IMG/VR virus record: IMGVR_UViG_3300032829_000001
Reading direction: 5' to 3' (one strand)
DNA: 64,000 nt
Source: an uncultured virus (IMG/VR IMGVR_UViG_3300032829_000001)
Taxonomy: Duplodnaviria > Heunggongvirae > Uroviricota > Caudoviricetes
Below the pieces are notes generated by a model. That model was given only the letters and a program-made list of their open reading frames with translations. It searched no databases and had not been told where the DNA came from. This document shows, in pieces, positions 1 through 57,500 of the stretch. The translations under genes were made by a program, and so were the position numbers. Each line of letters begins with the position of its first letter. Positions within the stretch are counted from its first letter, which is position 1.

Positions 1-162
1 TGAACGAGCAGGGCAGGCCCGTCGCGTGGGATGACCTGCCGGCGGAGGCCAAGGAAGCGCATCGGCTCGTTGCGGCGGCGGTCGTGGGTGCTGCGGTTGC
101 ACACAACCCGCCGCCGAAAACGCCGCTGGTTCGGGTCTAGACCACTGGAGTAAAATCCCGCC

Positions 163-423
163 ATGGCCATCTACAACCCCGACCGGACTGCCCCGCCGCC
201 ACCCGTCACCGCCCCGACGCTCGACGCGCTCGTCGCCCAGATCGCCGCGCTCGCGCCGAAGATGGGCGTGGTGGAGGTGATCATCATCGGCCGCGATCCG
301 CGCACGCGCGGCGTGAAGCTCTACGGCGACCCGAAGCTGAACTCGGACCCGGAGATCCGCGAGGTCGTGGCCGCGAAGTTCGGGCTCTTCGACAGCGGCG
401 AGACGGGCTGGCCGAGCGAGTAG
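163..423 (+). CDS. hypothetical protein
   Basis: ORF with GC3-biased codons; TAAAAT -10-like hexamer at 151-156 just upstream of ATG. Confidence 0.7.
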   Translation: MAIYNPDRTAPPPPVTAPTLDALVAQIAALAPKMGVVEVIIIGRDPRTRGVKLYGDPKLNSDPEIREVVAAKFGLFDSGETGWPSE

Positions 424-426
424 GAT

Positions 427-711
427 GTGAGCGTCAGACGCGTACAGGTACGTCGGTTCAGCGACCTGCACGAGGGGATGGACGTGCTGTGCACTGCGTG
501 TCGACACTGTGGTGGCGAGCATCGGGTCACGCTCAGGGAGCTGAAAACGGCTCCGACGTGCGCACCAGGGGGGTACATCCGGCACCAGCGTGTCTGGATA
601 GCAGAGCCCGCGCCACACATTATGGCTAGAGTAGCGGAGGGCGGATTCGGTGTCGCCGAGGAGAACGTGCGACGCGGAACCATCTATCGTGAGGTCGCAG
701 GACAGGCGTGA
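427..711 (+). CDS. hypothetical protein (CxxCxxC motif)
   Basis: Tightly packed ORF, GTGA overlap with next gene. Confidence 0.55.
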   Translation: MSVRRVQVRRFSDLHEGMDVLCTACRHCGGEHRVTLRELKTAPTCAPGGYIRHQRVWIAEPAPHIMARVAEGGFGVAEENVRRGTIYREVAGQA

Positions 712-2099
712 TCAAGCACCGCTTCATCGTTCGCGGCGCGGACGACTTCAAGATCTTCGCCGCGATCCCGTGTGAGCGGCAGGTGCTCACGTGGAAGAAG
801 TGGGTGCGGCCGCCGGACTGGGAGGGGCTACACGAGGTTGGCAACCGACTGCTGCACATCTTGACTGTGCTGCTGGAGTGTCTGGTGCCAGGGCGTGAGA
901 AGCTGGAGGACTTGAGCCAGTATGGTATCTCACTTACGCGCGACAGAACCAGAACCGCAGACGAACTGGCCAAGGTCGACTCGGCCTCAAACAAGCTCAA
1001 AGAAGAACGGCGCGAGCAGGCAGAGCGTGTGCGCCAGGCCGAGTCGACCTATCGGGCGGGGGTTGCGGCTCTTCAGGCGCTGCTGGCTGAGCCTGCTGGT
1101 GGAGATTTCGCCAGTCGTGCAATAGAGATCCGACGGGTCATCCTGACGTGTGCTGGTGATGATGGCGGCGCGCAGGATATTTTGGCTCTCGTAGAGAATG
1201 ACACGCGGACTGCCGTCGAATTTTTCAATAGCTACCGCTCAAACCACGATCGCAGCAATGAAGCTCGGCAAACCGTCACACGCCTGCTGCACATGTACGA
1301 CCAACTGTTGAACCACCTGGACAGTGTGCAGGTGCACCGCCGCGATCTCGTGCGTTGCCTCGACACAGCTATGATCGAGCTTCTCTCCTCCGAGCCACTC
1401 CCCGATACGCCCTGCCCGCCTGGCACTCCGTTCGCGGCGTACACGATTGAGTTTCAGGGCTCGGTCTTCAGCATCGTCGAGGGGCACGCCTGGGTCGCAG
1501 CGCGGCCGCGCCCGCCCCAAGCTGTCATCGACCGTGCAGCGGCACTGGTCACGGACGCCGCGCTCGACAAGCTCGCAGAGGGGGTCATCACTGACGACGC
1601 CCGGCGCGTGGTGGATACGCTGACCGATCACGCCTTCGACGCGACCGACGACGAGAAGCGCGTCGTCGAGATCGTCACGCAGATGCTGGTCGAGCGTGGG
1701 CTCAACCCGAAGGCGCCCGAGCGCATTCCGGTCGTGGAGGTCGACGCGAGGGACGCCAACCACGTGCGCGAGGCCGAGCGTCGTGACGAGCTGGCGCAAC
1801 GTGCGCCGAAGGTCCGCACGATCAAGTTCCACGTCTCGCCGCCGCGCTACCTGCGCGAGGCCGCGGAGCGCATCTTCGCGACGCCAGGCAAGCACAAGAA
1901 GGCCCATTGGGTCATCGGGCACTGGCGCAACCAGGCGTACGGGACCGAGCACAGGGAGCACCGCCAGAAGTGGATCAAGCCGCACATCCGCGGGCTCGGC
2001 GAGGCCGGCGCGGTCGTGGCGCGCGTGGCGGCGAGCGACGAGGAAGTGGCGGCGATCGAGCCGCCAACGAGCCCCCCGCCCCCGCCGACTTTGCACTAG
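708..2099 (+). CDS. phage hypothetical protein with C-terminal HWVxGHWRNQ...WIxPH motif
   Basis: 463-aa ORF; C-terminal motif resembles one common in uncharacterised phage proteins. Confidence 0.65.
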   Translation: MIKHRFIVRGADDFKIFAAIPCERQVLTWKKWVRPPDWEGLHEVGNRLLHILTVLLECLVPGREKLEDLSQYGISLTRDRTRTADELAKVDSASNKLKEERREQAERVRQAESTYRAGVAALQALLAEPAGGDFASRAIEIRRVILTCAGDDGGAQDILALVENDTRTAVEFFNSYRSNHDRSNEARQTVTRLLHMYDQLLNHLDSVQVHRRDLVRCLDTAMIELLSSEPLPDTPCPPGTPFAAYTIEFQGSVFSIVEGHAWVAARPRPPQAVIDRAAALVTDAALDKLAEGVITDDARRVVDTLTDHAFDATDDEKRVVEIVTQMLVERGLNPKAPERIPVVEVDARDANHVREAERRDELAQRAPKVRTIKFHVSPPRYLREAAERIFATPGKHKKAHWVIGHWRNQAYGTEHREHRQKWIKPHIRGLGEAGAVVARVAASDEEVAAIEPPTSPPPPPTLH

Positions 2100-2112
2100 C
2101 TGAAAAAACTGC

Positions 2113-2141
2113 TTGACACTCTCGCCGCCCGAGTTCACCTT
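2113..2141 (+). promoter_or_regulatory. sigma70-type promoter of the leader/tRNA array
   Basis: TTGACA (2113-2118), 17-nt spacer, CACCTT (2136-2141); A-tract upstream. Confidence 0.65.
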
Positions 2142-2153
2142 CGACTCGTCACC

Positions 2154-2315
2154 ATGAAGCTCCGATCGTCGTACTCGATTTTGCGCCTGGGCCATCTGGC
2201 CGGCGCAGTCGTGTGCCCGATGGGTCAGGATCAGAACTTCGCGCCCACCACAGTCCAAAGTTCATCCCCAACGAAACTTTGGACCGAAAAGCAGGAGGGG
2301 CGGCCGACGCGGTAA
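2154..2315 (+). CDS. putative attenuator leader peptide (53 aa, MKLRSSYSILRLGHLAGAVVCPMGQDQNFAPTTVQSSSPTKLWTEKQEGRPTR)
   Basis: ATG just downstream of promoter; all 20 amino acids, 40 distinct codons; TAA lies inside the antiterminator 5' arm. Confidence 0.65.
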   Translation: MKLRSSYSILRLGHLAGAVVCPMGQDQNFAPTTVQSSSPTKLWTEKQEGRPTR

Positions 2316-2355
2316 CCACGCACGCAGATTCGCTGGTTACCGACGAGGCCGCCCT
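2297..2355 (+). promoter_or_regulatory. antiterminator hairpin
   Basis: GGGCGGCC-gacg-CGGTAACCA (2298-2318) pairs with TGGTTACCG-acga-GGCCGCCC (2334-2354), sequestering the terminator 5' arm. Confidence 0.7.
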
Positions 2356-2374
2356 GAAGAGGGTGGCCTTTTTT
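2346..2374 (+). terminator. intrinsic terminator (attenuator) just before the first tRNA
   Basis: AGGCCGCCCT-gaag-AGGGTGGCCT followed by T-run. Confidence 0.85.
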
Positions 2375-2381
2375 CGTTTCT

Positions 2382-2460
2382 GGCCGGGAGCACTGGGATG
2401 CAAGGACGCCTGTAAAGCGACCGCCTCTGGCTCGCGTGGTTCGATTCCACGGCCCGGCAC
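2382..2460 (+). tRNA. tRNA-Tyr(GTA)
   Basis: cgc-CT GTA AA-gcg; variable arm; GGTTCGATTCC T arm. Confidence 0.75.
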
Positions 2461-2505
2461 GAGGTGAACGACATGAAGAGAAAACGCACGGCGCTGACGG
2501 CGATC

Positions 2506-2580
2506 TGCCGCTGGCGCCCGACAGGACGGGCACCGGTCTTTTAAACCGGCCTGAGTGGGTTCGAGCCCCACCGGCGGCAC
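2506..2580 (+). tRNA. tRNA-Lys(TTT)
   Basis: ccggt-CT TTT AA-accgg. Confidence 0.85.
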
Positions 2581-2585
2581 GACAT

Positions 2586-2659
2586 GGGTCACAAACTTTG
2601 CTGGTGAAGCCCCGCCTCTTAAGCGGTGAGAACGCAGTTCGAGTCTGCGGTGACCCACA
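2586..2659 (+). tRNA. tRNA-Lys(CTT)
   Basis: ccgc-CT CTT AA-gcgg; tgggtca/tgaccca acceptor. Confidence 0.8.
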
Positions 2660-2735
2660 ACGCGAGTAGCTCTCGCGCGGTTCTCTGACAATCGAATAGA
2701 AGACGCGAAGGGGCGGGCACCAACCCGCTCCACTA

Positions 2736-2809
2736 GCCCCGGAAGCTCTCATGGTGACGAGCGCGCCGCTGAAGACGGCGAGGGTGCGGTTCGATTCCGC
2801 GACGGGGCA
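2736..2809 (+). tRNA. tRNA-Phe(GAA)
   Basis: gccg-CT GAA GA-cggc; gccccg/cggggc acceptor. Confidence 0.8.
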
Positions 2810-2861
2810 CGAAGCTCTTGCAACGCGAGTGTGTGGTGTGGACGGGGAGCAAGAGCATCAT

Positions 2862-2935
2862 CGGCGTGTGGCGCAGCCTGGAAGCGCATCTGCTTCGGGA
2901 GCAGAGGGTCGGTGGTTCAAATCCACTCACGCCGA
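2862..2935 (+). tRNA. tRNA-Pro(CGG)
   Basis: tctgc-TT CGG GA-gcaga; canonical cloverleaf. Confidence 0.92.
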
Positions 2936-2941
2936 CAGCAC

Positions 2942-3012
2942 GCGAGGTTGGTCTACTGGCTGGGCCGCGGTCCTACACGCCGCAGAAGAGTGTTCGATTC
3001 ACTCACCTCGTA
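2942..3012 (+). tRNA. tRNA-Val(TAC)
   Basis: gcggt-CC TAC AC-gccgc (C33). Confidence 0.8.
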
Positions 3013-3013
3013 C

Positions 3014-3084
3014 GGAGGGTTCGTCCAATGGCAGGGCCCGCGCCCGATTAGCGCGAGACGAGTGTTCGATTCACTCACCCTCTA
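3014..3084 (+). tRNA. tRNA-Ile(GAT)
   Basis: cgcgc-CC GAT TA-gcgcg (C33, T37). Confidence 0.8.
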
Positions 3085-3085
3085 C

Positions 3086-3156
3086 TCCCTTGTCGGCTAA
3101 TGGCAGGCCGCTCGGTTCTGACCCGAGTAATTCACGTTCGAGTCGTGACGAGGGAA
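3086..3156 (+). tRNA. tRNA-Gln(CTG)
   Basis: ctcgg-TT CTG AC-ccgag. Confidence 0.88.
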
Positions 3157-3163
3157 CCTGTGA

Positions 3164-3234
3164 TCGGGAATCGGCTAACGGCAGGCCGACGGACTTTGAC
3201 TCCGTCTATACAGGTTCGAATCCTGTTTCCCGAA
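3164..3234 (+). tRNA. tRNA-Gln(TTG)
   Basis: acgga-CT TTG AC-tccgt. Confidence 0.9.
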
Positions 3235-3240
3235 CCGCAT

Positions 3241-3316
3241 GGTGGTCGTGGGTCAGAGGTTGACCGGCTGGCTGTGAACCAGTCCTAGGCGAGTTCGAGT
3301 CTCGTCGACCACCCCA
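3241..3316 (+). tRNA. tRNA-His(GTG)
   Basis: gctgg-CT GTG AA-ccagt; G-1 and encoded CCA. Confidence 0.9.
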
Positions 3317-3317
3317 T

Positions 3318-3390
3318 CCGGGTGTAGCTCATCTGGTAGAGCGCGCGCTTTGGGAGCGTGAGGCGGCAGGTTCGAGTCCTGCTACCCGGA
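3318..3390 (+). tRNA. tRNA-Pro(TGG)
   Basis: cgcgc-TT TGG GA-gcgtg. Confidence 0.92.
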
Positions 3391-3396
3391 CGAAAA

Positions 3397-3469
3397 GAAG
3401 GGGGGCCCGCCGGGGCGGAGGGATGCCTTGCAAGCAACCCGCGACGAGTTCAACTCTCGTGCTCTCCAC
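3397..3469 (+). tRNA. tRNA-Ala(TGC), divergent
   Basis: tgc-CT TGC AA-gca; T arm acgag-TTCAACT-ctcgt; weak acceptor pairing. Confidence 0.6.
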
Positions 3470-3578
3470 AAACCGTTACCACAAGCCCTCAACCGCGCAG
3501 GCGGATGCGGAGGATCTCTCCAAGATGCGCTCGCATACGGAGGTGAAACCGCGAGGGGCCCACTACAAGTGGGTGGCG

Positions 3579-3656
3579 GCGGGCTTGGGCAGCGATCTGG
3601 GTATCAGCGGGGACTCCAAATCCCTGCAGCGGGGTTCGATTCCTCGGCAGCCCGCG
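3579..3656 (+). tRNA. tRNA-Trp(CCA)
   Basis: gggga-CT CCA AA-tccct; gcgggct/agcccgc acceptor. Confidence 0.8.
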
Positions 3657-3744
3657 GAGAGTGCGTGGCAATGGTGCCTAACCGGTCCCGAAAACCGGCG
3701 TGACGTGATGAGCGTCAGGAGTTCGATCCTTCCACTCTCCTCCA
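3656..3744 (+). tRNA. tRNA-Ser(CGA)
   Basis: ccggt-CC CGA AA-accgg (C33); long variable arm; CCA. Confidence 0.85.
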
Positions 3745-3748
3745 GCTC

Positions 3749-3819
3749 GGCGCCATCGTTCATCGGCAGGACAGCGCCCTTTCAAGGCGCGAAGGCGAGT
3801 TCGACTCTCGCTGGCGCTA
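3749..3819 (+). tRNA. tRNA-Glu(TTC)
   Basis: gcgcc-CT TTC AA-ggcgc. Confidence 0.9.
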
Positions 3820-3820
3820 C

Positions 3821-3894
3821 GACCTGTTCGTCTAGACGGCTCAGGACAGCGGCCCCTCAAGCCGCGAACACCGGTTCGAATCCGGTACAGGTCA
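3821..3894 (+). tRNA. tRNA-Glu(CTC)
   Basis: gcggc-CC CTC AA-gccgc (C33). Confidence 0.9.
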
Positions 3895-3900
3895 CTTCAT

Positions 3901-3978
3901 GGCCCCGTAGCTCATTTGGATCAGAGCGCTCCGCTACGAACGGAGAGGCGGGAGGTTCGAATCCTCTCGGGGCCGCCA
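3901..3978 (+). tRNA. tRNA-Arg(ACG)
   Basis: ctccg-CT ACG AA-cggag; CCA. Confidence 0.93.
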
Positions 3979-3979
3979 C

Positions 3980-4049
3980 GGCAGTGAGCGCAGGGCGCAC
4001 GCGAGCTTCATAAGCTCGGCGGCGAGGGTTCGAGATCCCTCCACTGCTA
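3980..4049 (+). tRNA. tRNA-Met/Ile2(CAT), elongator type, short D arm
   Basis: cgagc-TT CAT AA-gctcg; ggcagtg/cactgct acceptor. Confidence 0.7.
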
Positions 4050-4050
4050 C

Positions 4051-4122
4051 GCGCACGGAGCCGGCCGGAAAGGCGCCACCTCGACAAGATGGAGACAGCA
4101 GGTTCAATTCCTGCCGTGCGCA
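4051..4122 (+). tRNA. tRNA-Val(GAC)
   Basis: ccacc-TC GAC AA-gatgg (C33, one stem mismatch); gcgcacg/cgtgcgc acceptor. Confidence 0.75.
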
Positions 4123-4123
4123 C

Positions 4124-4207
4124 GGAGAGTTGCCCGAGTGGTAATGGGGTCCGGTTGCTAACCGGAAGCCGACGACAGTCGCGCAGGTTCGATCCCTGCA
4201 CTCTCCT
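4124..4207 (+). tRNA. tRNA-Ser(GCT)
   Basis: tccgg-TT GCT AA-ccgga; long variable arm. Confidence 0.9.
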
Positions 4208-4212
4208 CTCAC

Positions 4213-4283
4213 GGCTCCGTGTCCGAGTGGTCAGGTGGCGGTCTGCAAAATCGTCTACATCGGTTCGAATCCGATCGGAGCCT
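4213..4283 (+). tRNA. tRNA-Cys(GCA)
   Basis: gcggt-CT GCA AA-atcgt; U73. Confidence 0.9.
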
Positions 4284-4287
4284 CCGT

Positions 4288-4360
4288 GAGGACGGAGCTG
4301 GGCTGGTTCAGCGTCGCGTTGCCAACGCGAAGTCCGCGGGTTCGATCCCCGTCGTCCTCT
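4288..4360 (+). tRNA. tRNA-Gly(GCC)
   Basis: tcgcg-TT GCC AA-cgcga; U73. Confidence 0.85.
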
Positions 4361-4364
4361 CTAC

Positions 4365-4439
4365 GCGCACGTGGCCGAACGGTTAGGCGGCTGCCTTCCA
4401 AGCAGTTCCAAGCAGGTCCGACTCCTGTCGTGCGCTCCA
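4365..4439 (+). tRNA. tRNA-Gly(TCC)
   Basis: gctgc-CT TCC AA-gcagt; CCA. Confidence 0.88.
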
Positions 4440-4514
4440 TGCAGAAGGCCCGAGGCCCGGAAACGGGAGGCGCCGGATTCACCACGGCGGACTGGCCCCT
4501 CGGGCCGAGTTCGT

Positions 4515-4586
4515 GCCCCTGAAGCATTGACGGCGATGCGCTCGCTTCGTAAGCGAGAGAATCCGATTCGACTTCGGACGGGGGCT
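4515..4586 (+). tRNA. tRNA-Thr(CGT)
   Basis: ctcgc-TT CGT AA-gcgag. Confidence 0.85.
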
Positions 4587-4587
4587 C

Positions 4588-4684
4588 TGCGGGGTTGGAA
4601 AGTGGAGAGCGGGCCGCGAGGCTTCGCTCGTAATCCGCTGGGCTCATAACCCGGAGATCGCAGGTTCGATCCCTGCCCCCGCTA
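4588..4684 (+). tRNA. initiator tRNA-fMet(CAT) with a hairpin insertion in the D loop
   Basis: ctGGG-CT CAT AA-CCCgg (three G-C pairs), 1:72 mismatch, extra gagcg...cgctc stem in D loop. Confidence 0.8.
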
Positions 4685-4685
4685 C

Positions 4686-4758
4686 GCCCGACAAGCATTG
4701 CTGGCGATGCGGCCGATCTGTAATCGGCAGACACTCGGTTCGACTCCGGGGTCGGGCT
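4686..4758 (+). tRNA. tRNA-Thr(TGT)
   Basis: gccga-TC TGT AA-tcggc (C33). Confidence 0.85.
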
Positions 4759-4763
4759 CTCAT

Positions 4764-4836
4764 TCCAGAGTAGCTTCAAGGCAGAGGCGCCTGGCTGTTA
4801 ACCAGGAGGTTGTCCGTTCGAGTCGGACCTCTGGAG
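4764..4836 (+). tRNA. tRNA-Asn(GTT)
   Basis: cctgg-CT GTT AA-ccagg; G73. Confidence 0.9.
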
Positions 4837-4844
4837 CTTTCCGT

Positions 4845-4921
4845 GCGCGCGCCCCGAGCTGGATCGGGCTCCCGCCTTCTAAGCAGGATGACTGCAGGTT
4901 CGAATCCTGTCGCGCGCTCCA
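4845..4921 (+). tRNA. tRNA-Arg(TCT)
   Basis: cccgc-CT TCT AA-gcagg; CCA. Confidence 0.8.
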
Positions 4922-4922
4922 T

Positions 4923-4995
4923 CTCGCCGAAGCTCAAGTGGATGAGCGACGCTCTCCGAAGGCGTAGGCTGCCGGTTCGAATCCGGCCGGCGAGA
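4923..4995 (+). tRNA. tRNA-Arg(CCG)
   Basis: acgct-CT CCG AA-ggcgt. Confidence 0.88.
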
Positions 4996-5000
4996 CGACT

Positions 5001-5072
5001 GGTCCCGTATGCATCTGGTGAGGCAGGGCGCCTGTCCAGCGCTTGAGGAGGGTTCAATTCCCTTCGGGATCG
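5001..5072 (+). tRNA. tRNA-Asp(GTC)
   Basis: ggcgc-CT GTC CA-gcgct; G73. Confidence 0.85.
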
Positions 5073-5081
5073 CTGTAACAT

Positions 5082-5531
5082 ATGAGGATGAGAAAACGCG
5101 ATCTCATCTGGTTAGCTGGGGTGCTTGAGGGTGAAGGTTCATTCATGAAGGGCCCACCGTCTCGGCCCGGCGCGCCATGCATAGCAGTCGAGATGACAGA
5201 TCGAGATATCATCGAGAGCGTCGCAAAGATGTTCGGTAACAAATTGGCAAAACTGAGGGCCAGGGGTGGGAACAGGCCGAGTTATAGTGCCCGCCTTCGA
5301 GGAGAGCGTGCCGTCTTATTGATGCGCCTGCTTCGACCATTGATGGGGGCCCGAAGAAGGCATCAGATCGATGTCGCTATTCGCTCTTGGTCTGGTATGT
5401 GTCGTCCGTCCGTTATTCTTCCTGCTGCGGAGGTGCTGCGCGAGATGCTGACAAGATCATCGACGCGAGACCTCGGTCGCCGGTTCGGATGCGCGCATCA
5501 AACTATTTTCAGGCGGGCCTTCGGGAGGTGA
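5082..5531 (+). CDS. single-motif LAGLIDADG homing endonuclease with C-terminal HTH
   Basis: WLAGVLEGEGSF motif, downstream MTD motif, lower GC than neighbours. Confidence 0.85.
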   Translation: MRMRKRDLIWLAGVLEGEGSFMKGPPSRPGAPCIAVEMTDRDIIESVAKMFGNKLAKLRARGGNRPSYSARLRGERAVLLMRLLRPLMGARRRHQIDVAIRSWSGMCRPSVILPAAEVLREMLTRSSTRDLGRRFGCAHQTIFRRAFGR

Positions 5532-5561
5532 TCGAAGCGGTTCAACTCCCGGTGGGACCGC
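5532..5561 (+). pseudogene. degenerate 3' half of a tRNA (Asp-like)
   Basis: GGTTCAACTCCCggtGGGACCG resembles the T arm and acceptor 3' strand of upstream tRNA-Asp (GGTTCAATTCCCttcGGGATCG). Confidence 0.5.
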
Positions 5562-5566
5562 GAAGA

Positions 5567-5639
5567 GCTGGCGTAGCTCAGTGGTAGAGCGATGGCCATT
5601 ATAAGCCGTGCGTCGTCTGTTCGATTCAGACCGCCAGTA
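5567..5639 (+). tRNA. tRNA with 8-nt anticodon loop (Ile(TAT)-like; TTA suppressor reading also possible)
   Basis: canonical D/T arms; atggc-CATTATAA-gccgt; A73. Confidence 0.7.
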
Positions 5640-5644
5640 CGCGT

Positions 5645-5719
5645 GGGGGCGTGGCGCAAGCGGAGACGCGCCGGACTCAAAATCCGGACACAGCACCGGT
5701 TCGATTCCGGTAGCCCCTA
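5645..5719 (+). tRNA. tRNA-Leu(CAA), short variable arm
   Basis: ccgga-CT CAA AA-tccgg. Confidence 0.8.
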
Positions 5720-5720
5720 A

Positions 5721-5803
5721 GCGCTCGTGGCGGAATGGTAGACGCGCCAGCTTGAGGTGCTGGTGGCCGAAAGGCCGTGGGAGTTCAAATCTCCCCGAGC
5801 GCA
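5721..5803 (+). tRNA. tRNA-Leu(GAG)
   Basis: ccagc-TT GAG GT-gctgg; long variable arm. Confidence 0.92.
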
Positions 5804-5813
5804 CGAAGAATCT

Positions 5814-5901
5814 GTCGGCGTGACGGAACTAGGTATACGTGCTGCGTTCAGACCGCAGCGGGGGCAACCCTGTAGGAGTTCGATTCTCCTCGCCGACACC
5901 A
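5814..5901 (+). tRNA. tRNA-Leu(CAG)
   Basis: ctgcg-TT CAG AC-cgcag; variable arm; CCA. Confidence 0.88.
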
Positions 5902-5930
5902 CGTGTAGAATCACGAGAAAGGAGGAGACC

Positions 5931-6470
5931 ATGTCCGCTGCTGCAACGATCCCGGTTCTGTACCTCGACATCGACTTCCGCCGCCTTCGCGTCTCGACCT
6001 GGCGCAAGGCCATGCGCGACTGGGAGAAGGGCAAGATCGAAGTCGTCGAGTACAGCCGCGACCACACGATCAAGGGCGTGTCGCAGGACTACCCGATGCC
6101 GGCGGTCGTGCGTCTGCTCCGGCGCTTCAAGCGCGACAAGCTGCGCATCAAGTTCTCGCGGCTCAACATCTACGCGCGCGACGGCTTCCGCTGCCAGTAC
6201 GACGGCAAGCGGTACGCGGCCGAGGATCTGACCTTCGATCACGTGGTCCCGCGCGCCCAGGGCGGCAAGACGAACTGGGAGAACATCGTCACGTGCTGCC
6301 GGGCGTGCAACCACGCGAAGGCCGACCGCACGCCGTACGAGGCGGGGATGGCACTCGTGCGGATGCCGAAGAAGCCCCACGACGTCCCGGCCATCACCGT
6401 GAAGATGGATGTCAAGCACATGCCGCCCGAGTGGGCCGGCTACTGGTCGGACACGCTGGAGGACAGTTAG
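5931..6470 (+). CDS. HNH endonuclease (McrA/HNH_5-like)
   Basis: RxNIYARDxFRCQY...LTFDHVVPRAQGG.TNWENIVTCCRACNHAK; AGGAGG RBS before ATG 5931. Confidence 0.9.
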   Translation: MSAAATIPVLYLDIDFRRLRVSTWRKAMRDWEKGKIEVVEYSRDHTIKGVSQDYPMPAVVRLLRRFKRDKLRIKFSRLNIYARDGFRCQYDGKRYAAEDLTFDHVVPRAQGGKTNWENIVTCCRACNHAKADRTPYEAGMALVRMPKKPHDVPAITVKMDVKHMPPEWAGYWSDTLEDS

Positions 6471-6479
6471 GTTCTCCAA

Positions 6480-6552
6480 GGCCCGGAAGCTCAAGTGGAT
6501 GAGCGCCGCACTCCTAACGCGGAGGCTGTGAGTTCGAATCTCACGCGGGCCA
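6480..6552 (+). tRNA. tRNA-Arg(CCT)
   Basis: ccgca-CT CCT AA-cgcgg. Confidence 0.8.
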
Positions 6553-6558
6553 CGAAAC

Positions 6559-6634
6559 GCCCCTGAAGCTCATGAGGCTGAGCGCTCCGTTGGTATCGGA
6601 GAGGCAGCCGGTTCGAATCCGGTCGGGGGCTCCA
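6559..6634 (+). tRNA. tRNA-Thr(GGT)
   Basis: ctccg-TT GGT AT-cggag; CCA. Confidence 0.88.
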
Positions 6635-7007
6635 ACGAAAGCTGTTCGCGCTGTGGAAGCGCAAGGGGCCGTGTGCGCTCCACGAGCAGCAGAGCGATCT
6701 GCATGAGGTCGTGCTTCAGACGCTCGTCGGATGCGATCGCCTTCTTCACTCGGTGCTCCGCCGCGATCATCGAGCTGTGGTCGAACCCGCCGAGCACCGC
6801 CGCGATCTCGGGCCAGCTCAGGGTCGTCGCGTGTCGTAGCACATACACAGAGACAGACCGTGCACGCGTGATCGACCGAATCCGGCGGCGCCCGCGGATC
6901 TTGTCGGGCGAGACGCCGAAGTAGTCTCCCACGACATCGATCACGGCGAACGCGAACGGCTGCGTGGATAGGAAGCGCTCTCGGCAGGTAGCGCGCATGC
7001 GAGTCAC
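6570..7007 (-). CDS. stand-alone DnaA C-terminal (domain IV) DNA-binding protein
   Basis: VVGDYFGVS..IRGRRR.RSITRAR.V.VYVLR..T.LSWPEIA.VLGGFDHSSMI matches Bac_DnaA_C pattern; GTG overlaps upstream stop. Confidence 0.85.
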   Translation of the reverse strand: MTRMRATCRERFLSTQPFAFAVIDVVGDYFGVSPDKIRGRRRIRSITRARSVSVYVLRHATTLSWPEIAAVLGGFDHSSMIAAEHRVKKAIASDERLKHDLMQIALLLVERTRPLALPQREQLSLEPPTGFEPAASPIPTERSAS

Positions 7008-7288
7008 GCTGCACTCGCGACGAGCTTGTGGATGGCCAGCAGCTCGCGAGCCTTCTCGCTGTTCGAGTTGTGGTGGCCGCGAATCCAAGCCACGCCTTCG
7101 TCGTTCACGGCGAGCAGAGCGGGGTTGCTGCGGCTGACGGACATGAAGACCGCGCTGTCACCGTCGTGCGGCCCGATCTGTGGGGTCCACCTCTGTCCGC
7201 TTTCGTAGTCCTCGTCGGAGACGTATGAGCGCACGACGTCGCCGTCTAGGCCAATGTACGTGATCGGATCGCCCGCCACGATGCTCAC
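7004..7288 (-). CDS. hypothetical protein, EGxxWIRG paralogue 3
   Basis: EGVAWIRGHH...ARELLAIHKL. Confidence 0.75.
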   Translation of the reverse strand: MSIVAGDPITYIGLDGDVVRSYVSDEDYESGQRWTPQIGPHDGDSAVFMSVSRSNPALLAVNDEGVAWIRGHHNSNSEKARELLAIHKLVASAA

Positions 7289-7569
7289 GCTGCGCCCCGC
7301 ACCAGCTTGTAGGCCGCGAGCAGGGCTTGTCCCTCCGGGCTGCTCTCGCGGTGGTGACCCCGAATCCAGCGGAGCCCCTCAGTCTCCATCCAGAGCACCG
7401 GCGTGCCGTTTGCACGCAGCCAGAAGCCCATCTCGTTCGGGAGGGGGATCTTGTCGTGACCACCGTCGACGTGACCGGGCCGGAGACCGTATCGGATTTC
7501 CTCCGTACTTGGCGACCCAGACACGACGTCCACGTATGTGATCGGGTCGCCGACGCTCATCGCGCTCAC
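7285..7569 (-). CDS. hypothetical protein, EGxxWIRG paralogue 2
   Basis: EGLRWIRGHH...EGQALLAAYKL. Confidence 0.75.
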   Translation of the reverse strand: MSAMSVGDPITYVDVVSGSPSTEEIRYGLRPGHVDGGHDKIPLPNEMGFWLRANGTPVLWMETEGLRWIRGHHRESSPEGQALLAAYKLVRGAA

Positions 7570-7868
7570 GCGGACCTCGCAAGCATGTGCGCGGCGAGCA
7601 GTGCTTTACCCTCCGCGTCGTCCACGTGCTCGCCACGAATCCAGTCGACGCCCTCGACGAGATTGGCGTTGGCGAACTCCCACAGTGACACGTCCCGGTG
7701 GACCACGTGTAGACGGAGCGGGACGTGAACAAGCTGAAGGTGCTCGTCGTGGTAGTTGTACGCGCGCTCGATGTGGGTGATCCCGCCGCGAATCATTTCG
7801 ATCGGCTCGATCGGTCCCAGCGGGCCCGTCAGCTCGATAGAAGCGCTGGTGTATCGCTTGCCCGTCAC
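7566..7868 (-). CDS. hypothetical protein, EGxxWIRG paralogue 1
   Basis: EGVDWIRGEH...EGKALLAAHML. Confidence 0.75.
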   Translation of the reverse strand: MTGKRYTSASIELTGPLGPIEPIEMIRGGITHIERAYNYHDEHLQLVHVPLRLHVVHRDVSLWEFANANLVEGVDWIRGEHVDDAEGKALLAAHMLARSA

Positions 7869-9112
7869 GGCGTGCCTACCGGCTTCAGTGGGATGACGAG
7901 CCCGCCGCTCGGCGAGCCGCCGTGGTGCTGCTGCACGCGACGATAGAACGTGTCCTTCACGCCGTTAATCTGCGCGATCGTGCCTTCAGCCTTGAGCGTG
8001 TTGATGACCTCATCGAACAGAGGAAGAGATACTTTCGCTCGGGAAAGGATCTCTTTCTGCGTCGCGCCTTGTTGCCCCTTCTTGTCGATGATGTTGAGGA
8101 TCTTCTGGCGGTCCCGCTCCCAGATCCCGAGCGCGAGCGTGTCGCCGAGGTGCTTGATGCTCGGCAGGTACAGGTTCTCGACGAAGATGATCGCGCGGCG
8201 GATGGCGTCGAGCGAGATCGACCAGCCGTCGTAGCAGGCATCGCCCGAGTCGGCGGCGTAGAGCAGTGCGACCTTCACGGCCAGCGTGGGGATGCCCGAC
8301 ACGAACGTCTGCACGCGCTCGGGGAACTCGTTCATCGTCGAGTCGCGGTAGCGTGCCCAGCGCTCGTGCTCGATCCAGGCGTACTGTGAGAAGCCCGCGC
8401 ACTGCCCGATCGGCATGTGGATGATCTGGTGCAGCACGGTCGTGAGGTAGTCGCGGGCCGCGTCCCACTGCTGCGGGAGCCGGAACGTGCCGCGGTCGCC
8501 GTAGAGCATGACCATGCGGCCGAAGAAGCCGCCCTGCCACTCCTCCGTGTCGCTGTAGTTGAAGAGCAGATCCGTCGAGCACGTAGAGATCATCGACATG
8601 CAGATCGGCGGCTCGACGATCGTCTTGCCCTTGCGCAAGTTGCGGATGTAGGGCACGTCGGGCGGATGGTCGTAGAGGTCCATCAAGGCCGTGCGGATCT
8701 GCTCGCCGTACCCGCGCTGCGTGGTCTTCAGGAAGTGGCCGAATTCGCGGTACGTGAGCAGCCCCGAGGGCGTCTGCCGGATCTGCGCGATCATCTCCTC
8801 GTAGCTGCCCGGGATGGGGATGACCGCCTCGGGGTTCGCGCGGCGGAGCAGCTTGATCCCCGTGTCGACGCTCGACGTCTTGCGGCCCGACCGGCTCGTG
8901 CCGACCAGAAGGGTGTAGAGGTTGGGCACGATCGCGCCGCCGGCAAGGTACGGGCAGGCGAGGCGCCGCGCGATCGCTCCGGCGAGTACAGTCAAACCCG
9001 TCCCGACATGGTAGATCTCGGGCGCGTCGCTGGTCTGGGACGCGTACTCAACGTAGCCCCTCAGAAAGGCCGACTGCTGAGGGAGAGCATCGCTGATGTG
9101 CTGGGGCAGCAC
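7865..9112 (-). CDS. DUF3987/YfjI-like P-loop ATPase (putative replicative helicase) with C-terminal winged helix
   Basis: PNLYTLLVGTSRSGRKTSS Walker A-like; LMDLYD and GGFFGR motifs. Confidence 0.75.
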   Translation of the reverse strand: MLPQHISDALPQQSAFLRGYVEYASQTSDAPEIYHVGTGLTVLAGAIARRLACPYLAGGAIVPNLYTLLVGTSRSGRKTSSVDTGIKLLRRANPEAVIPIPGSYEEMIAQIRQTPSGLLTYREFGHFLKTTQRGYGEQIRTALMDLYDHPPDVPYIRNLRKGKTIVEPPICMSMISTCSTDLLFNYSDTEEWQGGFFGRMVMLYGDRGTFRLPQQWDAARDYLTTVLHQIIHMPIGQCAGFSQYAWIEHERWARYRDSTMNEFPERVQTFVSGIPTLAVKVALLYAADSGDACYDGWSISLDAIRRAIIFVENLYLPSIKHLGDTLALGIWERDRQKILNIIDKKGQQGATQKEILSRAKVSLPLFDEVINTLKAEGTIAQINGVKDTFYRRVQQHHGGSPSGGLVIPLKPVGTP

Positions 9113-52193: not shown

Positions 52194-52319
52194 AGCGGCT
52201 ACATAGGGCCTCTATCCTGAGGCTCACCCCTGTGACGACTCGAAGAACGGGCGTCCATTCGAGAAGAAGTGGTTTTTCTTCCCGAGCGGATGCCCGTTTG
52301 CCGTTTTTCAAGGAGCTGC

Positions 52320-55300
52320 ATGGCGTCTTCTGGTGTAGTGACTGCAAGCCCACTGATCAACGGAACAGGCACGCCGCTGCTGCAGGGTGAGCTGGTTCGC
52401 ATTTCAGCGCCGAACACGCTGGCGCGCGCTCAGGCCGACTCTGACGCCCATCTTCTTGGGTACATCGGCGTCGTGTACTCGGGGAAGTGCAACCCGAACG
52501 GCGCCGTGCAGGTGTGGAACGTCGGGACGCCTCCGAAGGTGCTGCTGGAGCCCGGCCTGACGCCACACGCCGGTGAGACGTTGTGGATCTCGGCGACGAT
52601 GGCCGGGCGCGCGACGAACGTCGAGCCGGTTGGGCCGCCAGCCAGCCCCAGCATCGGCACGATCATCGATGCGACAAGGTACAGCAAAGACTTCTCGTGC
52701 GTCGTCGTGTTCGCGTCGGGCGGCACTGGCGCGCAGGGCCCGTCGGGCGGCGCACAGGGAGCCCAGGGAGCTACCGGTGCAACGGGAGCGACGGGCGCGA
52801 CAGGGGCCACGGGAGCCACCGGTGCGACAGGCGCAACGGGCGCAGCGGGCGGGCCAGGTCCACAGGGTTCGCCGGGACCGGCGGGAACGCCGGGCGCACA
52901 GGGAGCGCAGGGCGCGCCGGGTGGGCCGCAGGGATTCCAGGGGCCGCAGGGCGCACCGGGTGGGAACCAGGGCTTTCAGGGCGCGAACGGTGCACAGGGT
53001 GCGCAAGGCGCACAGGGTTCGGGATTCCAGGGCGCCACCGGCGCCACCGGATCGCCCGGCGCCACGGGGGCGACTGGCGCACCGGGTGCTGCCGGCGCTA
53101 CTGGTGCGAGCGGCGCGACAGGTGCGACAGGTGCGTCGGGCCCGGCCGGGCCACAGGGCGCCACCGGCGCGAACGGTTCGAACGGCGCAACAGGTGCGCA
53201 GGGAGCGCAAGGATTTCAGGGTGCGAAGGGTGCGCAGGGGTTTCAAGGTTCGGGCTTTCAGGGCGCTCAAGGGGCGCCGGGCGGCCCGCAGGGGTTTCAG
53301 GGGCCTCAAGGATCGCCCGGCGGCGCCCAGGGGTTTCAGGGCGCGAGCGGACAGATCGGTCCGCAAGGGTTTCAGGGTGCCGCGGGCACGAGCGGGACAC
53401 AGGGGGCGACGGGCGCTCAGGGCGCGACGGGTGCTGCTGGTGCGCCCGGCGCGACGGGGGCCACGGGCGCGACAGGTGCACCAGGGGCCACGGGTGCAAC
53501 CGGCGCCACCGGCGCGACGGGGGCCACGGGTGGAACGGGACCGGCCGGCGCTCAGGGCGCGCAGGGTGCGACAGGTGCACAGGGCTTCCAGGGTTCGGGC
53601 TTTCAGGGCGCTCAAGGGGCGCCAGGTGGGCCGCAAGGGTTCCAAGGTCCACAGGGATCGCCGGGCGGGTCGCAGGGGTTCCAAGGTGCAAATGGTGCGC
53701 AGGGCGCGACCGGTGCTGCCGGCGCGACGGGACCACAGGGTGCTCAAGGCGCGACCGGCACGGCAGGTGCGCAGGGCGCAACCGGCGCCACCGGCGCGAC
53801 AGGCGCCACAGGTGCGACAGGCGGAACAGGCGCGTCAGGCGCAACGGGTGCGCAGGGGGCTCAGGGCGCAAGCGGCGCGCAGGGAGTGACGGGCGCTCAG
53901 GGCGCAAGCGGTGCGACGGGCACGCAAGGTTTTCAGGGCAGCGCGGGCGCACAGGGTGGCCTCGGCGCTCAAGGCGCAACCGGTGCGACTGGCGCGCAAG
54001 GCTTTCAGGGTGCCGGCTTTCAAGGAGCGCAGGGCGCGCCGGGCGGCCCGCAGGGGTTCCAGGGTCCGCAGGGGTCACCGGGTGGCGCGCAGGGGTTTCA
54101 AGGTGCGCAAGGTCTTCAGGGCGCGCAAGGCGCCGGCTTTCAGGGCGCCGCCGGTCCGCAGGGCGCGCAAGGTGCTGGCCAGTTGGGGGCGCAGGGCGCA
54201 CAGGGTGCACGTGGCGCGCAAGGGTTTCAGGGGGCGCAGGGCGCCGGTGCGCAGGGCGCGCAGGGCTCTGCCGGTCCGCAGGGCGCTGCAGGCGCGCCGG
54301 GGGCGGCGGGAGCGACGGGTGCACCGGGCGCCACCGGCGCAACGGGAGCGACCGGGGCCACTGGCGCCACAGGGGCCACGGGCGCGAGCGGCGCGACAGG
54401 TGCGCAGGGAGCCACCGGAGCGCAGGGTGCCACCGGCGCCCAGGGGTTCCAAGGCTCTGGGTTCCAGGGAGCGCAGGGCGCGCCGGGCGGACCGCAGGGG
54501 TTCCAGGGGCCGCAGGGCGCTGCAGGCGGCAGCCAGGGGTTCCAGGGCGCACAGGGCGCGACGGGAGTAACCGGAGCGCAGGGTGCGACAGGGGCAACCG
54601 GACCGGTCGGACCCACGGGAGCGACGGGCGCGACAGGGGCCACGGGAGCCACCGGTGCGACGGGAGCCGCTGGAGCGACGGGCGCGACAGGTGCCACTGG
54701 TGCAACAGGCGCGATGGGGCTCCAGGGTGCACAGGGGGCGAATGGCGGCGGCGTCTCGTCCGTCACCACAGCGACGTTCGGGCTCCAGGCCGTGCCGACG
54801 ACCGGCGATGTCGTGCTGTCGTTCGGGAACTTCCTGCGCGTGCCGGGCGAGCTGCAGGTGCAAGGCGAGCTGGAAGTCGACACGGGCACCCTGCTCACGT
54901 ACCCGCCGCCTCCGGCGCCGCCGCCCATCGCGGCCGTGTCGAGCGCCGGTACGTCCACCGAGGTCGCGCGCGCTGATCACACGCACGGCCCGCAGTTCTC
55001 GGCGTTCGCCGTTCCGGGCAGCGTCGTCTATGCCGCCACCGATCCGTCGGGTGGCAATGACGCCACGGCCGTGTTCAGCACGACGGTCGGCGTGGCCACG
55101 GCGGCACCATTCAGGACTCTCACCGGGCTTCTCGCGGCGATGCCGCGCTCGGGAAACATGTGCGCGTTCGTCTGCCTGATGAAACCGGGCAACTACTACA
55201 AGCCGCTCACGCTCACGCTGGACAACCTCGACGTCGTCGGGTTCAACAACTACCAGTCGATGCTCTTCCGCGGGTCCGACCTCACGAACTCGGCGGCGGA

Positions 55301-57500
55301 CAAGATGCTCGTCGGCGAGCAAACCGTCGCGGCCACATCGACACAGGGGTACGCAGTCCAGACCAACGTCATCACCCCGAACGTGGTGAACTTCTCGACG
55401 GGGAACACGCCCATCCGCGTGCAGACCGCCACACCGCACGGACTGAACACCGGCGACGTTCTGGCCGGGCGCAATTTCTCGGGCGGCTCGCGCCTCTCGA
55501 ACGCCGCGGCCAACGGGTTCTGGACGGTCACCGTCACCAGCAACGTGGAGTTCACGCTCGACGGCTCCACCGGCACGCCCGGCGGGGACACGTGGTCGGG
55601 CAGCGGGACGTTCATTCGCTGGACGCTGTTCGACAACGCAGGGGTTCCCACGCAGTTACTCGCGGTGCCGGGATTCCCGGTGGGGCTGATCGGCAAGCGC
55701 TTCACTTTCGACGCCTCCTCGCCAACAGGAGGGTTGCAGAACGCGTCCTTCCCGATCGTCGCCTACGACTCGAAGCACGTCATCTTCCAGGCCGATCCGG
55801 GCGCCATCGCAGGCGGAGACTTCGGGCGCTTTCAGGAGCCCGCGGTGTTCGTCGCACGGATCACCACGTCCAACACGACCAACAGCAGCAACGGCAACGG
55901 CGTGCAGTTCGTGGGCATCTCTGCGCCGAACATCAACCTGAACGGACCGACGGACGCGCTCGCCGCGTGCGAGCAGACGCTTGCCGGCGGCAGCATGGTC
56001 AGCAACAACAGCCTGAGCGTCGCCAACGCCTACGTGGATGAAACCGGCGCGTTCCAGTTCGTCGGCGTAGGTGCGCGCGTAATCGCGACTGCTCCTACGC
56101 TGACGCGGACGATGGCGCTCACACGGCTGTACCACGCCGTGACCAGCGGGGAGTTTCTCATCACGAGCACACGCGGTCAGTGCAGCATCACCGACGGGTA
56201 TTACGGATGCGGACTCGTCATGACCGATGCTGGCGGTCGTGGCGGGGCGACGCTGGCCGATGGAGCTTTTGTACTTCAGGCAACGAACCCGGCATTCGTT
56301 CGCGGTCCGTGGATCGTGGGAACGACGTCGACAGACGGAATTTTGTTGCAAGGGTCAACCATCGACGTTCAAGGTGCCGATTTGTCCGGCGCTGTGACCG
56401 CCGGACTCGCGGCCATTCGCATCGTCGGATACGACAGCGGCGTCACTTCGTCCGACATCAGCGGGCACAACAACTACTCAAGCATCAGCTTTGTGACAGG
56501 CACGGCTTCTCGGTCATTGCGCGGGAAGGTTGCATTCAGTGTTTCTGGCGGTTCCATCGGGCTATATTCGTTCCTGCACAACCTGCTGCTGTTCAGTGGA
56601 GATGCGCAATACGTATACGACAGCTTCTTCGACTTGCTGTCCGGCGCGATCGGTATCGAGGACAGCTTCGAGAACAGCGTGTTCGACGCGGCTGGTGGTG
56701 CGGCCGGAAGCCTGATCCTCGGAAAGTACCAGTACCAGTACACCACGCTGAGCGCCGCGCAGATCAACCGGGGCCAGTTGGTCAGATTGAACGGGAGCGA
56801 CAGCGTCACTTGGGCCCTCGCCGACACCGAGGCAAATGCACGGCGGACGATCGGGGCAATGGTCGGCACGATTACCAGCGCAGGCGGAGAAGTCTCGCAC
56901 GTGGCCTACGGGCAGGTCGGTTACTGCCTGCTGGATCTCACGGGCGGGCACGGGGGCGCTACGGCTGGGACGGTGCTGTACCTATCTCAGACCCGACCCG
57001 GCTACGCGCAGGCGGATCGGCCAGTCTCGGGCGTCATCCAGAAGATCGGTGTCGCGCTCGAAGACTCTGATGGAACTGGCACCGTACGGACGCTGTTGGG
57101 CGGCCCGAGCTTCGGGACCGAGGGAGATTTCTTCGAGCTGAACCTGTCGTTCAGCGGAGCAATCGCACCGAGCAGCACCTTCACCATGCGGCCGACGACC
57201 GGAACGGGCGACGTCTCGTCCGGTCTCAACTGGGAGTGGGAGTGCCCATTCGACACGACCGGATTCGAGCTATGGATCAACATGCTTGTTTTTGTCGGCA
57301 CCGGAAGCCCTGTGCTTGGTACGTTCGTGAGTAAGGGCGGTTCTAGCGCAGCAGTCGGGCCATCAGCCACCGGTGTCAGTCTCGTCGGGGACTCAGGTGC
57401 GTTGGCTGTTGCCGCCGGCCAGACGATCGGAATCGGAATCACCACGAACGGCGGCAACCTGACCGCTGTCTCCTTCACCGTGCGTCTCCGCCTCGTGTAG
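52320..57500 (+). CDS. very long collagen-like fibre protein (anchor, about 2 kb GXY stalk, beta-rich body, second anchor-like domain, C1q/BclA-like head)
   Basis: [23 protein letters not shown]; repeated [19 protein letters not shown] units; WEWECP head. Confidence 0.85.

Follow-up and report, generated by a model that had tools for sequence, protein, structure and literature searches.

The locus

The window considered here is a stretch of 64,000 nucleotides (nt) from an uncultured virus of the Caudoviricetes (IMG/VR record IMGVR_UViG_3300032829_000001), a phage contig with 66% guanine plus cytosine (GC). On its plus strand genes run to position 2099, a leader region occupies 2100-2379, and an array of transfer RNA (tRNA) genes beginning with a tRNA-Tyr gene at 2380 extends to 6634. 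The leader contains a short open reading frame (ORF) placed 65 nt upstream of the first tRNA, whose stop codon lies within one of two competing RNA hairpins, the other being an intrinsic terminator (Table 1). An earlier note on this DNA had described such an arrangement, with a 53-codon ORF that uses 40 codons for all 20 amino acids, a stop codon in the 5' arm of an antiterminator, a competing terminator with the first tRNA directly behind it, a 10-bp hairpin inside the ORF and about 36 tRNA genes downstream, and all of these elements were found to be present. The reading that we prefer, to which a probability of roughly 0.55 is given, is that the leader acts as a ribosome-mediated transcription attenuator whose peptide is kept complete in amino acids, so that it would report slow decoding of any amino acid and gate the tRNA array.

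Table 1. Positions of the leader elements, the tRNA array and a neighbouring gene in the window (bp, base pairs)
Feature	Position	Strand	Description
Promoter-like site	2113-2141	+	TTGACA at 2113-2118, 17-nt spacer, CACCTT
Leader ORF	2154-2315	+	ATG, 53 sense codons and TAA; all 20 amino acids, 40 distinct codons
Hairpin in the ORF	2253-2284	+	9-10 bp (2253-2262/2275-2284), -12.3 kcal/mol; candidate RNA polymerase pause hairpin
Antiterminator hairpin	2297-2355	+	5' arm 2297-2317, 3' arm 2335-2355; -39.7 kcal/mol
Intrinsic terminator	2345-2374	+	Stem of 9-11 bp (2345-2370), loop GAAG, T6 run; -21.5 kcal/mol
Array of 36 tRNA genes	2380-6634	+	ARAGORN and Rfam; interrupted by two HNH endonuclease ORFs
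Primase gene	7865-9112	minus	PHROG match

Composition of the leader ORF

The leader uses TCG, TCA, TCC and AGT for serine, CTC, TTG, CTG and CTT for leucine, three codons each for proline, threonine and alanine, and both codons for lysine, glutamine and glutamate. The 21 missing sense codons include AGA, AGG, GGA, GTA, ATA, CTA and TTA, and in these lists the earlier note was right. There are no codon runs, and eight amino acids are present once. By a statistic that is post hoc and concerns a single sequence, the number of distinct codons is higher than in simulated or random ORFs: samples of 53 codons drawn from the codon usage of 10 phage genes contained 29.3 distinct codons on average (standard deviation 2.4), none of 20,000 reaching 40, and random bases of the leader composition gave a mean of 34.7, with at least 40 distinct codons in 2.3%, 20 amino acids in 2.2% and both in 0.3%. 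Of 87 ORFs of 53-65 codons in the six frames of the window, one combined 40 codons with 20 amino acids, presumably the leader itself.

Once the peptide is taken as given, 40 distinct codons are ordinary under uniform synonymous choice (P = 0.22); measured against the phage's own codon bias the corresponding value is P = 0.0017. A cognate leader codon exists for 33 of the 35 readable anticodons of the array, which is unusual by comparison with random bases (P = 0.002) and ordinary for the peptide as it stands (P = 0.12-0.19). For Arg-tct and Arg-cct of the array the leader contains no codon, and strict wobble rules leave GCC, CCC, TCA and TCC of the leader without a tRNA in the array. The leader does carry codons of all four serine tRNA classes, as had been claimed, but the array answers with two Ser tRNAs only (cga and gct). 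Because both the codon diversity and the anticodon match are ordinary for this peptide, the "pan-codon" design proposed in the earlier note is not supported and should read "pan-amino-acid"; the signal is at the level of amino acids, not of codons.

The ORF has a perfect AGGAGG at 2293-2298, where the antiterminator arm has its foot and 15 nt remain to the stop; no start codon lies downstream of it at a usable distance.

The leader peptide family

The peptide belongs to a family of 16 full-length ORFs, all metagenomic (Logan, JGI, ENA; those of the relatives on contigs of 502 to 18,254 nt), with pairwise identities of 44-92% and a core of 53 residues in 12 of them, the others having 54, 54, 51 and 48. 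Three members of 53 amino acids (aa), P0001-P0003, are 72-75% identical to the leader; P0004-P0009 were obtained by a profile search of 1.84 billion representatives, which gave eight matches of which two were discarded, and the remaining members are P0012-P0016 and P0018. Two long proteins, P0010 and P0011 (854 and 394 aa; E = 7e-4 and 1e-3), were discarded as chance matches and P0017 (31 aa) as a fragment. A metagenome scan with the peptide gave a single chance match, on an AT-rich contig (L013). No real relatives were found in viral contigs with two window-derived patterns, two alignments and a back-translated motif, and genome contigs gave nothing; a further candidate, L014, was a chance match within a larger gene.

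All 20 amino acids occur in 13 of the 16 family cores, with six to nine amino acids in single copy in each peptide. The rare residues W, Y, H, I, C, F and N shift between columns rather than disappear. Tyrosine is in column 7 in the window and in column 42 elsewhere, and the clade in which W47 is changed to G has its tryptophan at column 12, 45 or 54. In P0009 H14, C21 and I9 are lost and the same residues stand at 43, 26 and 14, respectively; P0013 has lost I9 and has isoleucine at 19 and 34, P0005 and P0015 have lost F31 and both have phenylalanine at column 3, and P0006 has lost N30 and has asparagine at column 9. By our count 9-10 losses are compensated and four are uncompensated, three of these four in the P0006 lineage.

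Several null models were compared with this pattern. With independent draws from the pooled composition of the family the probability of a complete peptide is 0.018. Shuffling within columns among six diverse representatives, four of them complete, gave a mean of 0.92 complete (P = 0.0008), and with the conserved columns fixed and the variable ones random the probability that at least three of five non-discovery lineages are complete was 1.5e-4 to 1.8e-3. In neutral tree simulations, started from a complete root and using site-specific frequencies and rates that were tuned to the identity observed, the mean was 2.9-3.3 complete tips and 13 were reached in none of 21,000 runs (P = 0 to 0.0025 with a tree of half the length), although this null is built on a crude tree (unweighted pair group method with arithmetic mean) and crude site rates. 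Homology searches do not select for completeness, and the signal is therefore not an effect of ascertainment. Amino-acid completeness of the family thus appears, from these sequences, to be under selection.

Terminator, antiterminator and ribosome position

The terminator ends six bases ahead of the first tRNA and is the sole terminator-like site on the plus strand within 1-9000. The antiterminator is composed of an outer pairing of GGGCGGCC (2298-2305) with GGCCGCCC (2347-2354) and an inner pairing of CGGTAACC (2310-2317) with GGTTACCG (2335-2342), between which there is a 4x4 internal loop. Its 5' arm contains the last codons of the ORF and the TAA (2313-2315), and the segment GGCCGCCC(T) (2347-2355) of the 3' arm doubles as terminator stem by pairing with 2360-2368, the T6 run being next. 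The region 2140-2380 folds more stably than its shuffled versions (z = -3.15; 0 of 200 shuffles equal it), the minimum-energy structure having the antiterminator and the centroid structure the terminator. In the nascent RNA 2148-2359 it costs 14.4 kcal/mol to free 2347-2355, compared with 6.2 +/- 2.3 kcal/mol for dinucleotide shuffles; this value was reached by 0 of 400 shuffles, and by 2 of 400 when 2310-2359 was held fixed.

The predicted structure of the nascent RNA depends on the position of the ribosome. With the footprint at any of codons 1-45 the 5' arm of the terminator is sequestered by at least 13.1 kcal/mol (45 of 45 positions), falling to 9.3 kcal/mol at codon 46 and to 2.2-3.7 kcal/mol at codons 47-54. 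The boundary is at codon 45/46 for footprints reaching to +9 to +12 and at 44/45 for +14, and the residues T44-E45, invariant in the family, sit at it. In the full-length RNA the probability of the terminator is 1.00 with the ribosome at codons 45-54.

Base changes at predicted pairs within the ORF were deduced where the amino acids of the relatives force them. In the hairpin 2253-2284 the pair 2257-2280 is changed on both sides, from A-U to C-G (Q35/W43 to P35/G43), in P0007, P0008, P0009 and P0014, and is broken in P0006; the pairs 2253-2261/2276-2284 are kept and the pair 2262-2275 is not conserved. The inner part of a hairpin at 2182-2207 is mostly compatible with the relatives. By its complementarity to GGGCG (2298-2302), the segment CGCCC (2242-2246) could be a weak "region 1".

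These data also bear on the possibility that the locus is a small protein gene with its own promoter and terminator, the 53-aa product acting as a protein and the adjacency to the tRNA genes reflecting coincidence or co-expression. Such a gene would explain the conserved length of the ORF and the conserved blocks AGAVVC, QDQNFAP and LWTEKQEGRPTR, some of which are left unaccounted for by the predicted helices. It seems to us decidedly unlikely, since functional residues normally keep their columns, while W, Y, H, I, C, F and N move, since radical changes, W to G and Q to P among them, follow a base pair of the RNA, and since the stop codon is buried in an arm of the pairing alternative to the terminator. 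The search for protein families gave no match in Pfam or PHROG, and AlphaFold2, run on the 16-sequence alignment, gave no confident fold (mean pLDDT, the predicted local distance difference test, 57.5; no secondary structure), a weak result on so shallow an alignment.

The start of the leader

Four relatives have in-frame N-terminal extensions reading (K/E)FTF(K/E)xxM, and one of the family, P0016, extends further back to LT, its extension being LTTAIAKFTFKVVM. Positions 2113-2153 of the window translate to LTLSPPEFTFDSS, which is 2 nt out of register with the ATG. The LT (TTGACA) and FTF (TTCACCTTC) motifs have equal spacing in the window and in P0016, and the distance from the -10 hexamer to the ATG is 12 nt in the window, against 10 nt in the extended relatives. 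This 2-nt insertion or deletion before the ATG would mean that the stretch 2113-2153 is conserved as DNA and not as protein, and the retention of TTGACA and TTCACCTTC at a fixed spacing as DNA supports a promoter at this place. The reading frame of the family, as compared across its sequences, is kept from the ATG onward only.

A transcript from the putative promoter is predicted to start a few bases 5' of the ATG and would be a near-leaderless messenger RNA (mRNA), which would explain why a Shine-Dalgarno sequence is missing. Of 20 longest-ORF starts of the phage itself, nine have a Shine-Dalgarno-like 4-mer, about half being without one.

A parallel in phage Lacusarx

Sphingobium phage Lacusarx (NC_041927.1) was chosen for comparison, one of the longer blastn patches having come from its tRNAs. 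It has two tRNA blocks, and the stretches of interest are 6628-6807 and 8002-8140. Ahead of each block come a promoter and a short ORF that is nearly leaderless, and a hairpin at the stop codon of this ORF lies immediately before the first tRNA. The block Lys, Lys, Gly, Asp, Glu, Glu, Gly, Arg, Phe follows the promoter TTGACA-17-TACACT and, with its ATG 10 nt on, an ORF of 34 codons in which D, E, F, G, K and R make up 19 of 33 residues (P = 0.009) and all six are present. The block Ser, Leu, Leu, Thr, His, Gln, Ser, Cys, Trp follows TTGACA-17-TATCAT and, with its ATG 8 nt on, an ORF of 22 codons in which C, H, L, Q, S, T and W make up 19 of 21 residues (P = 8e-9), all seven being present. When the two amino-acid sets are swapped between the ORFs the values are P = 0.37 and P = 1.

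The Lacusarx loci resemble that of the window in the order of their parts, a TTGACA-17 promoter, a short ORF listing the amino acids served by the tRNAs behind it, a hairpin and the tRNA genes. They differ from it in that the ORFs are shorter (22 and 34 codons), that they cover subsets of six or seven amino acids and that they have no sequence similarity to the window leader; no clear competing antiterminator was seen in them. In the paper describing the Lacusarx genome (PMC5648845) the strings 'leader' and 'attenuat' occur 0 times. Lacusarx provides a cultured phage in which a leader lists the amino acids of its own tRNA block, and the window, where leader and array are both complete, would be the limit of this arrangement.

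Comparison with known attenuators

In the enterobacterial leaders trpL, hisL, pheL, thrL and ilvL a short ORF is combined with a pause hairpin and alternative pairings, and the stop codon is so placed that a finishing ribosome masks the antiterminator arm. In its sequence and predicted pairings the window leader shares this architecture, with the difference that the enterobacterial leaders respond to one to three amino acids by means of control-codon runs and regulate biosynthetic operons, whereas the present one has no runs and precedes tRNA genes. T-box riboswitches likewise read the status of tRNA by competition between an antiterminator and a terminator, but they bind one uncharged tRNA directly by a specifier codon, independently of translation, and in this they are unlike the window leader. 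Rfam gave no match to T-box in 1900-7000 at E up to 1, and no leader family at its gathering score in 2090-2900. Features expected of an attenuator that were found are a leader ORF upstream, an intrinsic terminator between it and the array, an antiterminator sharing the bases of the terminator 5' arm, and control codons that match the array.

The closest known system is the attenuator of the whiB7 (wblC) upstream ORF (uORF) in mycobacteria and other Actinobacteria. According to PMC10274678, the Mycobacterium smegmatis uORF contains all amino acids but Cys, knock-down of genes for 18 of the 20 amino acids activates the attenuator, a single Trp codon is enough to sense a shortage of Trp, and loss of the start codon leads to constitutive read-through; the uORF is described there as variable in length and composition and enriched in Ala. 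The two systems have in common a short ORF with an antiterminator and a terminator behind it that exclude each other; in whiB7 stalling at many codons leads to read-through, and this is the polarity proposed for the window leader. They differ in that whiB7 controls the gene of a transcription factor in a cellular genome, whereas the window leader precedes tRNA genes in a phage, that completeness is apparently selected in the family of the window leader, and that there is no sequence relationship between the two. With tRNA genes downstream and a phage contig around it, the window leader would thus work like whiB7 without being a member of that class. The earlier note knew of no described system of this kind; this stands for tRNA genes, as a literature search, mostly without subscription journals, found no paper on their control by leader peptides, but the whiB7 uORF attenuator responds on the same logic to a lack of many amino acids (PMC10274678).

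The comparison with whiB7 is relevant to another possibility, namely that the leader is translated and coupled to termination by some other logic, such as a pyrBI-like mechanism, where a hairpin is suppressed by a ribosome following closely, Rho-dependent polarity or arrest by the nascent peptide, in which case stalling would lower the transcription of the tRNAs or a specific signal would be sensed and not just any codon. The Lacusarx hairpins, which begin at or right after the stop codon with no competing antiterminator seen, could be read in this way, as could the bistable equilibrium fold of the window leader, its conserved peptide block and its internal AGGAGG. We regard such a coupling as unlikely, because the pairing 2297-2317/2335-2355 is strong, local and statistically unusual, the calculation for the nascent RNA yields a clean two-state dependence on the position of the ribosome, and the whiB7 precedent has the polarity proposed here.

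Proposed mechanism and its weight

In the attenuator that we propose, transcription would start a few bases before the ATG at 2154 and a ribosome would translate the 53-codon leader close behind RNA polymerase, the hairpin at 2253-2284 perhaps pausing the polymerase and so keeping the two in step. A ribosome at the last codons or at the TAA would cover 2297-2317, leaving 2347-2355 to pair with 2360-2368, and transcription would terminate at the T run. If the ribosome stalled at any of codons 1-45, or if none were loaded, 2297-2317 would pair with 2335-2355, the terminator would be blocked and the polymerase would read into the 36 tRNA genes. Phage tRNAs that restored decoding would then re-close the switch, which would amount to a negative feedback.

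A number of observations weigh against this mechanism. The promoter named in the earlier note has a perfect -35 hexamer, but its -10 hexamer CACCTT matches at two of six positions, and a sigma-70 scan of 1-9000 listed no promoters. The ATG of the leader has no Shine-Dalgarno sequence ahead of it; GC at third codon positions is 0.72, against 0.68-0.92 in the genes, and the codon usage appears non-genic; across the leader one other frame on the plus strand and one on the minus strand are likewise open. Three of the 16 family peptides are incomplete, P0005 being without H and P0006 and P0018 without I, W and Y. The conservation of frame and length is biased evidence, since the relatives were found as predicted proteins and frame-broken copies are invisible, and since the relatives are protein sequences the tRNA-array context, and the terminator and the antiterminator 3' arm, which lie outside the ORF, are known from the window. 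With the ribosome footprint constrained the nascent RNA is predicted to switch at codon 45/46, but the full-length RNA at equilibrium is bistable, with a terminator probability of 0.58 without ribosome and of at least 0.5 at 19 of 44 upstream codon positions. As the equilibrium fold is not a clean switch, the model rests on kinetic, co-transcriptional folding; classical attenuators rely on kinetic control. Both Glu codons are late, at 45 and 48, and with a +14 footprint codon 45 is already predicted to give termination. The outer part of a hairpin at 2160-2232 is not conserved and was discarded, and the conserved blocks AGAVVC and QDQNFAP (window 2208-2249) are unaccounted for by the predicted helices; this region may have a role in the nascent peptide or be a weak anti-antiterminator.

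The missing Shine-Dalgarno sequence, the non-genic codon usage, the two other open frames and the finding of relatives by ORF calls alone would all suit a structured non-coding leader or a small RNA with its own terminator, in which the ORF is incidental and the tRNAs come from constitutive leaky read-through or are processed out of longer transcripts. The z-score of the fold and the covariation in the hairpin at 2253-2284 point in the same direction. We nonetheless hold this account to be quite unlikely: it fails to explain how 13 of 16 sequences are complete in one frame with rare residues that relocate, or why the frame is kept past the ATG when a 2-nt insertion or deletion is tolerated just before it, and in Rfam the region 2100-2379 matched no family, the best score being that of Phe_leader (16.7 bits against a gathering score of 55, E = 6.6).

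How and when the tRNA arrays of phages are expressed is largely uncharted. It has been reported that phage tRNAs rescue infection from tRNA-targeting defences (PMC10264068, PMC11464382, PMC11555353). The earlier note had connected the leader with host anticodon nucleases, a link that the present analysis does not support. It is tempting to speculate more broadly, and with a confidence that falls somewhat short of even, that phages with large tRNA arrays carry a sensor of decoding capacity, in which a leader kept by selection to hold all amino acids opens transcription into a full replacement set of tRNAs upon shortage or destruction of any host tRNA, or upon general failure of translation, and closes again on recovery. 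If the attenuator acts as proposed, a leader in which all 20 amino acids are sampled would give simple control, on demand, over the tRNA set of a virus and would be a natural general-purpose sensor of translation elongation. Together with the Lacusarx leaders it would suggest that leader-peptide attenuation is a general and so far undescribed regulation of viral tRNA genes, for which Lacusarx, together with the host of that phage, Sphingobium sp. IP1, would offer a cultured system with the same principle.

The tRNA array and the surrounding phage

ARAGORN found 33 tRNA genes at default settings and 36, on the plus strand, at a relaxed threshold. The three additional ones, Ser-cga (3656-3744), Val-gac (4051-4123) and a second Met-cat (4612-4685), are also given by Rfam, and with 36 tRNAs every one of the 20 amino acids is served. 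A tRNA of unassigned identity at 5567-5640 is given a two-base anticodon, 'ta', by ARAGORN and a good tRNA score of 57.4 bits by Rfam; it may be specific for Leu, its anticodon loop being unusual.

The HNH endonuclease ORFs within the array are at 5082-5531 and at about 5940-6470. Diverged pieces of a related tRNA array were found in a soil sequencing run (X4), with nothing usable across 2100-2400. This relative keeps a 35-nt spacer and tRNA-Lys(ttt), window 2472-2580, with two differences in 109 nt, and its sequence upstream of the position corresponding to 2472 fails to align. It joins 4996 to 5645 by 155 other letters and so is without the first HNH ORF, which fits a mobile homing endonuclease. 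Contigs X2 and X3 from sequencing runs are identical pieces of the phage of the window, and there was no RNA run among the sequencing runs listed for it.

The closest IMG/VR relative (L001/L002) has a helicase 81% and an upstream gene 52% identical to those of the window. Where the window has 2050-6674 it has about 300 unrelated bases (7110-7416 of L002), and its record contains neither leader nor array and no tRNA genes. Since this relative is without both, leader and array behave, in this comparison of sequences, as a single accessory cassette. Among cultured phages megablast gave no near matches to the window, distant blastn searches gave tRNA-sized patches alone, covering at most 5% of the query, and the best tblastn identity of the DNA polymerase was at most 27.6%.

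A leftward operon meets the tRNA array with its end near 6650. In addition to the primase, PHROG matches in the window include helicases, DNA polymerase and tail fibres. At 52269-57500 there is an ORF of 1743 aa with many matches to collagen-like tail-fibre repeats, eight stretches of it matching phrog_6320.

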